A program made the translations under genes and the position numbers. A stretch of DNA of 64,000 nucleotides from Octopus vulgaris (Eukaryota). The stretch covers positions 49,414,001 to 49,478,000 of the forward strand of contig OX597821.1 of the NCBI GenBank assembly GCA_951406725.2, written 5' to 3'. Below, piece after piece: positions 45,583 through 47,977 of the stretch (its first letter is position 1; every line of letters starts with the position of its first letter). The notes beneath the pieces were generated by a model, which saw only the letters and a program-made list of their open reading frames with translations, made no database searches and was not told where the DNA came from.

Positions 45583-45685
45583 ATATTGATACAAAGTGTA
45601 TACACATAGAGAGAGAAAGCATGCTGGTATACATATATATTCACATACATATATATATATATATATATATAATTTATATAGAAGG

Positions 45686-45736
45686 AGCTTCTACAGGACT
45701 AGAACTGTTTCATTCAAGAGAAATCTTCAGGAAGCT
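45686..45736 (-). ncRNA. Type I hammerhead ribozyme motif (identical mirror copy)
   Basis: Exact reverse complement of 47773-47823. Confidence 0.75.
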
Positions 45737-46241
45737 AGTTAACAAGAATTGTATTGGCATTTATACATTAAGGCAGGTTTAAAGGGGTGTTGGTGGGGGA
45801 CTTTTTTGGGGTAGGCATAGCGCAAAATGTTTTAGGTAAATGAGATTCTCACTTATACCTATGCACATATGTATACATATATACACACGCATACAAACCT
45901 ATATACATATACATATACACATACATACACACACATATATGTACATATATATACACAATAAATATAAATATACACACATACACGTACACCTACATACAAA
46001 TACATACATGTATATATATATATACATATATATATATATTCACATATATATACACACATATATATATATATATACATATATACATACACATATATACACA
46101 CATACACACATAAACATATATATACACACATACACATACATACATATACACACATACACATACATACGTATACATACATACATACATCCATACATACATA
46201 CATTTATACACATACACACACCCACATACATACATATATAC

Positions 46242-46273
<32 letters not shown>

Positions 46274-46610
46274 TCATACACACACACATACATATACATA
46301 CAAATATACGCACACACATACACGCACATACACATGTACATGCGTACCCATACACACACGCGCGCATCCATATATACACATAAGTACACACATGCGTAAA
46401 AGTATACATATATCTATGCTTACACACATACACACACACACACGCGCCTCCTTATATTCATACTTACATGCATACTCAAAAAATAAGTAAATAGTAAAAT
46501 ATATATACGCGCAGTTATTCATACATGCATACTCAAAAATTAAATAATAAATATTAAGTATATGTACGTGCAGTTACCTATTATATAGACGGATACATAC
46601 ATATAAACTT

Positions 46611-46663
<53 letters not shown>

Positions 46664-47772
46664 TACATACATATATACACATATATATACATATACACAT
46701 ATACATATATATATAGGTATAAGTGAGAATCTCCTTATTTACCTGAATCTCCTTATTTATGTAGGTGTACGTGTATGTGTGTGTATTTATATTTATTGGT
46801 GTATATGTATAGACTAGCCTTCTAAGAGTGTAGACATGAATCTGTAGGTACGCGTACGTATGTGTATATACGTGAATGTATGTAGATGTATGTATGTATG
46901 AATATAACGCGTGCGTGCGTATATGCGTATGAGTGTACGAATGAGTGAGTGTACGTGCTAAAGAGTGTGCGTGAGTGAATGAGTGCTTGTTTTCCAGTAG
47001 ACAGATAAATGGACTGGCTGTCATAGCCAAGATGTTTGTGACCAAGCAGCCAAAGATAACAAAAGTAATAAACGAAGATAATAAAATTAAAATTAGGGAA
47101 TGGGTCTGTATTTGTATGTGTATATATATATGTGTGTATGTGTAGGTATGCATAGGTACACATATGTATATATATATATATATATGTATGTATATGTATG
47201 TGTGTGTATATATGTGTGTATGTGTATATATGTGTATATAGGGACTAGTGTGCTGTGTGCGCATGTGTGTGTGTGGATTTGTGTGTGTATGCGTGTATGT
47301 GAGTATGTGTGTGTATGTGTATATATATTTTTCTGTGTGTATATGCATGTGTGGTCGTGTGTGTATATATACATGTGTGTATACGTGTATGCATGTGAGT
47401 GTGTGTATGTATACATATATGTGTATGTGTAGATATGTATATGTATGTGTAAGTGTATATATATGTACATATATGTGTGTGTATGTATGTGTATATGTAT
47501 ATGTATATAGGTTTGTATGCGTGTGTATATATGTATACATATGTGCATAGGTATAAGTGAGAATCTCCTTATTTACCTAAAACTCTATTCCCCTTTTTTT
47601 ATATATATATTTTTTTATTTTTTTATTTATTCTTCTATCTAATTTAACACTGACTCCTTGACCACTCCCCCAAGTATGATATTTTGCGCTATGCCTACCC
47701 CAAAAAAGTCCCCCACCAACACCCCTTTAAACCTGCCTAAATGTATAAATGCCAATACAATTCTTGTTAACT

Positions 47773-47823
47773 AGCTTCCTGAAGATTTCTCTTGAATGAA
47801 ACAGTTCTAGTCCTGTAGAAGCT
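47773..47823 (+). ncRNA. Type I hammerhead ribozyme motif
   Basis: AGCTTC-CTGAAGA-T TTC tctt GAA T-GAA-ACAG ttctagtc CTGT-A-GAAGCT: 6-bp stem I, core CUGANGA/GAAA, 4-bp stem III, GUA triplet. Confidence 0.75.
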
Positions 47824-47977
47824 CCTTCTATATAATAAATTAATTTTACTCTGCTATGTATTGAGTACCTTATTTACTGTGGTTAACCCCGAATCAACCC
47901 GGGACCTATATATATATATATATATATACACATACATACATACACACACATAGATATATACTCACACACACATATAC

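Follow-up and report, generated by a model that had tools for sequence, protein, structure and literature searches.

The window analyzed here, a 64-kb stretch of Octopus vulgaris DNA, carries the gene for nicalin (NCLN), ten exons of which mapped to the + strand by match to the Octopus sinensis nicalin P0001, one of them with 100% identity. The last base of coding exon 4 is 44480, and exon 5 begins near 51067 (+ strand). An insertion of ~2.2 kb lies between these coding exons and carries a hammerhead ribozyme motif in each arm; since nicalin is on the + strand, the right motif is in sense to the gene. The exon matches thereby confirmed the proposal of an earlier sequence-only reading that the + copy sits in sense inside NCLN intron 4. 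The features of the locus are:

44481..51066, + strand: coding intron 4 of nicalin, the host of the insertion
45649..45670: left (TA)n target run
about 45672..47906: whole insertion, two head-to-head halves with their 3' ends outward, between (TA)n runs
45672..46712, - strand: left half, a 5'-truncated inverted copy with the short 3' end (equivalent to 47840-47842)
45686..45736, - strand: type I hammerhead motif, left copy, antisense to nicalin
46703..46757: inversion junction, with the polarity flip at 46712/46713 inside an AT run
46713..47906, + strand: right half, with the family's long 3' end
47773..47823, + strand: type I hammerhead motif, right copy, in sense to nicalin, with the cut predicted after 47817
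47814..47832, + strand: predicted 8-bp lock hairpin, spanning the cut site plus the 3' strand of stem I (probability 0.74-0.97)
47841..47906, + strand: 66-nt tail, at the right end only; family contigs cover the tail and then TA
47907..47928: right (TA)n target run

Other repeats were observed elsewhere in the window. The same intron holds, outside the element, fragments of a DDE_3 transposase (48133-48505(-)) and a LINE endonuclease (49383-49727(-)). Two 214-bp inverted copies of a LINE-type RT fragment, 97.7% identical, lie inside and beside nicalin (11813-12026 and 63787-64000). At 33125-33398 there is a 277-bp palindrome that is 94.6% self-complementary, with a TA run adjoining on its right, in which no hammerhead core was seen. 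A second, unrelated hammerhead-like motif at 29390-29445(-) comprises a core, a stem II hairpin of ~12 bp and GAAA, with a 4-nt spacer, a 3-bp stem I and a TA run ~180 nt downstream; from its letters, it looks like a decayed minimal PLE hammerhead.

The same 51-nt motif occupies 47773-47823(+) and 45736-45686(-), and on sequence comparison the two copies were identical, as had been reported for both ends of the element in opposite orientation. The motif parses as a 6-bp stem I, the core CUGAAGA, GAAA and then UH in that order (as in the type I core rule CUGANGA/GAAA/UH), and a stem II made up of a U-U and then 3 bp under a tetraloop. Stem III has 4 bp (A15.1-U16.1 plus 3 bp) and an 8-nt loop containing CUAG. 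All three helices are formable, with 6, 3 and 4 bp; the open helix I makes the motif type I, and the closing pair G10.1-C11.1, which is common in hammerheads but not universal, is absent from stem II, with the U-U in its place. The cleavage triplet is GUA, with the cut predicted after 47817, and the descriptor parse supported this type I assignment and cut as originally read.

An Rfam search and a motif descriptor had been named as checks on the motif, and both were run. The two 51-mers were the sole matches to the type I hammerhead descriptor within the 64-kb window. Its strict form (6 Watson-Crick pairs in stem I and 3 in stem III) matched in 0 of 400 block-wise dinucleotide shuffles of the window, and its loose form gave 0.225 matches per shuffled window. 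The analytic expectation of the motif was 4e-4 per window, or 1.5e-5 when stem II was included. The hammerhead motif is far beyond chance. The Rfam check gave no Hammerhead_1 match at E up to 5 for the window or up to 10 for a 201-nt stretch; the motif represents a hammerhead build that Rfam misses. By eye, stem I might also be lengthened distally by 6 bp beyond an internal loop (47764-47769 / 47833-47838), a pairing that a common family variant at 47833 and the left arm's 3-nt gap would break.

The boundaries of the element differed from those first proposed. Family contigs cover 47836-47904, and this stretch therefore belongs to the family, so the insertion runs from ~45672 to 47906 and the earlier extent of 45676..47835 fell 71 nt short on the right. 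TA runs of 22-23 nt abut 45672 and 47906, and with TA on both flanks a target-site duplication is unreadable; further TA runs lie inside the element (46248-46273 and 46621-46652). The tail ends 3 nt past a 4-bp hairpin with an A/C-rich loop at 47888-47903 (predicted probability ~0.8). The hammerhead is 17-19 nt from the short 3' end and 83 nt from the long one.

The arms, first put at ~150 bp, share 285 nt (115+13+151+6) with one mismatch, the left arm having gaps of 3, 97 and 3 nt relative to the right. The 97 nt of the right half absent from the left half are 47584-47680; as a spliced intron this gap was rejected, there being no GT-AG reading on either strand. CA/GT strand polarity flips at 46712/46713, and at the junction 47547-47578 recurs as an exact 32-nt copy, along with another short duplication. 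A 25-nt exact match joins the halves (45972-45996 to 46758-46782). The sequence suggests that the left half, having skipped ~650 nt (46799-47452) where there is an 8-nt microhomology, extends beyond the right half by ~700 nt on the 5' side, although the skip is one reading, a global alignment having put the 25-nt piece elsewhere. This gap was also considered as a spliced intron and rejected: it can be slid to GT-AG, with poor signals, at the 8-nt microhomology. The two interiors are alike over 47 nt (79%), a likeness that beats a shuffle, but one that ignores repeat structure. Together, the two halves hold more than 1.8 kb of non-coding sequence 5' of the motif.

The near-identity of the arms, and with it the recent look of the insertion, was upheld. 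One mismatch in 270 nt of arms corresponds to ~0.5 million years (0.01-2.9) on the scale of PMC13282606, an age that conversion between the arms would make look younger. The interior proved non-coding, as had been thought. Pfam gave no match to RT or GIY-YIG for the element, nor for the 45 intron frames scanned out of 76, the set being without overlapping microsatellite frames and some short frames; the only matches in these 45 were the DDE and LINE endonuclease fragments, both outside the element. The sole coding-like inner piece, 46975-47112, had no homologue in the searches made. The lack of RT and GIY-YIG in this copy is as expected for a truncated or non-autonomous one.

To place the insertion within a family, we turned to public assemblies. 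Of 24 listed runs, 20 contain 75-96% of the words of 47632-47904; they come from nine studies under four organism labels, and 12 of the 20 are typed as RNA by guess only. Contigs were aligned to the 273-nt end stretch in four runs, giving 13,235 contigs in X2, 662 in X4 (a run of 40.6 million letters), 58 in X8 and 6 in X18, a depth that does not equal copy number. In X2, 310 contigs extend past the ends of this stretch. Among the 20 of 63 groups of loose ends listed, those behind 47840 run into (AT)n in 20 X2, 2 X4 and 2 X8 contigs, those behind 47844 in 11 X2 contigs, and those after the tail in 2 X4 contigs. These 3' ends match the locus, 47840/47844 being the end of the left arm and the end after the tail that of the right arm. 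It is a very large family with two shared 3' ends that run into (AT)n.

The largest of the 20 of 63 groups listed has its loose ends before 47773, where stem I begins (25 X2 and 3 X8 contigs). The X2 consensus of this group (agreement 0.66) is, by eye, the reverse complement of the 5' part of the motif in 25 of 30 letters, and the group is read here as a putative palindromic head-to-head junction at stem I, whose far letters are backed by few contigs. A head-to-tail unit of 62 nt appears in a single X2 contig, where 47834 is linked back to 47773; among 13,961 contigs, this was the one tandem joint. Of the 16 variable sites listed, the 51-mer contains two, one being the free core position N7 and the other a loop III base, whose variant lengthens the palindrome from 4 to 6 nt. 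Constrained sites were variable at 0 of 38 against 16 of 235 others (Fisher p = 0.14, not significant), and no compensatory stem changes were seen among the copies at the variable sites derived from contigs. At 47702, the two arms have the letter that is rarer in the family, the other one making up 73-77% of depth in DNA-type runs.

Together, these data indicated that the locus holds a real hammerhead motif in a textbook insertion of a Penelope-like element (PLE). The PLE assignment of the sequence-only reading stood, and was strengthened by the tail, the TA targets, the shared 3' ends and the large family; the retrozyme reading offered alongside it found no support at the locus because there is no head-to-tail array. 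The features shared with EN+ PLEs are a hammerhead near the 3' end, a head-to-head, 5'-truncated inverted copy, a tail at one end and shared ends in (TA)n. In published PLE insertions, which are TA-biased, a copy is often joined to an inverted, 5'-truncated one and has a tail on one side; the hammerhead is near the 3' end, and within microsatellites a target-site duplication cannot be read (PMC8557442). Palindromes at inverted junctions, and the capture of spacers, have been described (PMC3846280). A purified lizard PLE protein nicks and extends both strands of AT-rich DNA, with two internal RT start sites that define the tail and an uncut RNA as template (PMC11167929). We consider it very probable that a large octopus PLE family, which may belong to the Hydra clade, gave rise to the insertion recently, in one retrotransposition event; the ribozyme is predicted to be off in host RNA.

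Based on these precedents, we propose that a PLE RT/GIY-YIG protein encoded elsewhere would have nicked both strands of a TA microsatellite, and that two cDNAs would have been primed on the element RNA, one from the long 3' start with the tail, giving the right half, and one from the short start, giving the left half. Both cDNAs would have stopped early, switched template several times and been joined at the AT run at 46712/46713. Both ends lie 3' of the predicted cut site and the motif is intact, indicating that the RNA that was copied had not been cut there.

It is possible, though doubtful, that the family is a dedicated non-coding one of ~1.9 kb (a SINE-like or retrozyme-like PLE satellite) mobilised in trans, and not a set of truncated autonomous copies. 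Such a family shares the PLE mechanism and differs solely in its status. It would account for the missing ORF, the length of non-coding sequence 5' of the motif, the size of the family and the X2 contig with the 62-nt unit 47834 to 47773, and animal retrozymes are reported to derive from pLTRs (10.64898/2026.07.22.740005). The locus has no tandem array, however, the single tandem joint stands among nearly fourteen thousand contigs, and the interior may represent a long UTR or host DNA that was captured, as described for spacers (PMC3846280). A more specific version, which we think unlikely, has the family as non-coding satellites of a Hydra-type PLE with a gated hammerhead, kept off in host RNA by the 8-bp hairpin at the cut site and, for inverted pairs, by the antisense twin as well, and folding and cutting as a dimer when the RNA starts at the edge of stem I. 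If true, this gating would explain the persistence of many intronic ribozyme copies and the copies beginning at stem I; introns would then be expected to show a shortage of solo sense copies, but none of inverted pairs.

The near-identical inverted arms, TA flanks, lack of an ORF and silence of Rfam would also suit a DNA transposon of foldback or MITE type, bounded by long terminal inverted repeats and targeted to TA, in which the hammerhead match arose by chance; at 1.5e-5 per window, a few chance matches are expected over ~250,000 windows. We regard this as highly improbable, given that the ends are asymmetric, the right one reaching 66 nt beyond the inverted match, that the family has two alternative 3' ends into (AT)n, and that the left arm has internal deletions. 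In addition, the loose ends cluster at the first base of stem I (in the 25 X2 and 3 X8 contigs among the 20 of 63 groups listed), the variants listed avoid the core and stems (16 sites, p = 0.14), and the layout is that of Hydra-clade hammerheads. It is also quite improbable that two members of the family inserted independently and came to lie back to back at a single TA-rich site. The interiors do differ, TA runs also occur inside the element and three gaps separate the arms; against this, both arms carry the rarer letter at 47702 and are identical over 115 nt of low-complexity sequence, and an inverted pair is the usual product of a single PLE event (PMC8557442, PMC3846280).

To consider what a PLE insertion of this kind would do in host RNA, folds were predicted. 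In the isolated 51-mer, the predicted pair probabilities were 0.93 for stem I, 0.37-0.54 for stem III and 0.04-0.06 for stem II, and the active fold lay within about 1.2-1.4 kcal/mol of the minimum. With flanks, the predicted probability of stem I fell to ~0.01, and a CUAG 5' of the motif was predicted to pair with loop III. The lock hairpin, after which the short 3' end follows, is complete 9 nt past the motif; before it is made, the predicted cost of the active fold is 1.2-1.3 kcal/mol. Two copies are predicted to co-fold as a dimer through stems I and III and the palindrome (-27 vs -17 kcal/mol). In nicalin-sense RNA, the left arm is predicted to pair with all 51 nt of the motif; the predicted penalty for imposing the active fold is then 99 kcal/mol, compared with 5-7 when the twin arm is absent.

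In a read-through transcript of the head-to-head pair, the antisense arm would be made first and would pair over the sense ribozyme, with the local hairpin over the cut site as a second lock. The ribozyme would fold best in RNA with little flank, probably as a dimer through the CUAG loop. The sequence-only reading had left it between cutting of the nicalin pre-mRNA and masking by the antisense twin; masking is predicted by a wide margin, and cutting is unlikely because folding predicts that the ribozyme is off in this context. That the sense ribozyme cuts this pre-mRNA and regulates, or is co-opted by, the gene draws on the orientation of the right copy and on the small predicted cost of the active fold before the lock hairpin is transcribed, but we hold the prospect to be very remote, in view of the predicted pairing with the left arm and its penalty, the early completion of the lock, the young look of the insertion and the slowness of PLE hammerheads in vitro (PMC4209133). 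For nicalin, the insertion is most likely a passenger, predicted to form a long double-stranded stem in the pre-mRNA. As a separate observation, a possible 3' splice site lies at 47760-47775, ending at the second base of helix I, with a donor-like GTGAG word ~220 nt upstream; one X8 contig, and also one X2 contig, has a match that starts at 47775, and D. virilis Penelope has a 3' splice site at the start of helix I (PMC4209133).

No description of this octopus family or of twin masking was found in the literature searched, a search that did not extend to Repbase, Dfam and the curated O. vulgaris library. PLEs make up 6.83% of the O. vulgaris genome, with 190 PLE families and 329 recent Penelope insertions (PMC13282606), and the repeat library of that study probably contains this family. 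An octopus PLE hammerhead of other sequence is given in the supplement of Craig et al. (PMC8557442), and 235 Rfam hammerhead matches are reported for the giant squid (PMC6962438). The locus is in this respect ordinary, PLEs being abundant in O. vulgaris and their ends carrying hammerheads. Its value is as a clean, young, high-copy test case for the open question of the role of PLE hammerheads, with an uncut ribozyme inside each 3' end, a lock hairpin predicted to cover the cut site, and numerous family contigs starting at stem I.

The short stem II and its U-U, which the sequence-only reading had singled out, are present as described, but they are no defect or oddity, because 14 of 25 published Hydra-clade PLE hammerheads carry U-U at the base of stem II (PMC8557442). 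By sequence, it is a known natural variant. The 14 families come from three host species, 11 of them from one. A family-specific pattern scan gave no match in metagenome contigs and none in viral contigs, and the prokaryote pattern matches were rejected as hammerheads, all nine being without type I or type III stems. A looser metagenome scan (core plus stem II) gave six matches, none of this octopus family: four unrelated type III hammerheads, one weak candidate and one that was none. The four type III motifs (L010 4001-4026, L011 209-234, L012 4001-4026 and L015 4001-4026) have a 3-bp stem II closed by U-U; their 7-bp stems I, which the looser pattern did not demand, are paired despite their different sequences. 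Rfam matched none of the four at E up to 1; in L015, a weak Hammerhead_1 match was also obtained at a second site, 2995-3038, which lies between ORFs. Lunse et al. reportedly described dimeric PLE hammerheads, and the build of our motif may already be listed by them.

The minimal PLE hammerheads of Cervera and de la Pena (2014) resemble the octopus motif in being type I, with a palindrome in helix III and a predicted dimer. In contrast to them, the octopus motif combines a short helix II with a complete helix III of 4 bp, and it is without the G10.1-C11.1 pair and the 6-8 bp helix II of that set (PMC4209133); no U-U row was seen by eye in part 2/3 of the supplement. The non-LTR retrozyme HHR_Amex2 of axolotl shares the type I hammerhead, the U-U at the base of helix II, the non-coding character and the high copy number, and its monomer reaches 22% cleavage within an hour, the dimer cleaving better. 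Non-LTR retrozymes, however, form head-to-tail units of ~300 nt and circular RNA, whereas the octopus locus has inverted halves of ~1.1 kb and no array (PMC7229834).

Likenesses were also found to generic EN+ PLEs, which share the head-to-head halves, the tail at one end, the two 3' ends, the AT-rich target and a hammerhead that is intact in the DNA copy (PMC3846280, PMC8557442, PMC11167929). The octopus element differs in its tail of 66 nt, instead of the usual 30-40, and in having no readable target-site duplication, and Poseidon_Ac and Adineta Pen2a have an ORF start in the hammerhead or tail, of which there is none in the octopus element. The long end, after a small hairpin with an A/C-rich loop, recalls the start site of the lizard PLE (PMC11167929), as a resemblance only.

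Given a PLE, we lean slightly toward the Hydra clade, with Neptune, whose PLEs are also TA-biased (PMC8557442), as the main alternative. The Hydra clade is defined by the RT/EN motifs RWK and DKT and a CxCX5C linker, and by the lack of CCHH (PMC8557442). A Hydra family is present in Octopus bimaculoides; its published hammerhead, Hydra-1_oBim, is of other sequence than the motif here, and two exact words of the octopus family were absent from the Craig et al. supplement in an exact-word search. The motif was compared by eye with the Hydra-clade hammerheads of their File S2. It differs from these in its 8-nt loop III with a central palindrome (1-3 nt in all 25 listed families), and the element differs in being without an ORF and in having more than 1 kb of microsatellite-rich non-coding DNA 5' of the motif. 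In other respects, it has the usual build of the clade together with its (TA)n insertion: a type I hammerhead close to the 3' end, a U-U base, a stem II of 3-4 bp with a tetraloop, a 4-bp stem III (ACAG/CUGU in 4 of the 25 families), a (TA)n target, preferred by 26 of 27 Hydra-clade families, and an inverted 5'-truncated copy, as known from one family (PMC8557442).
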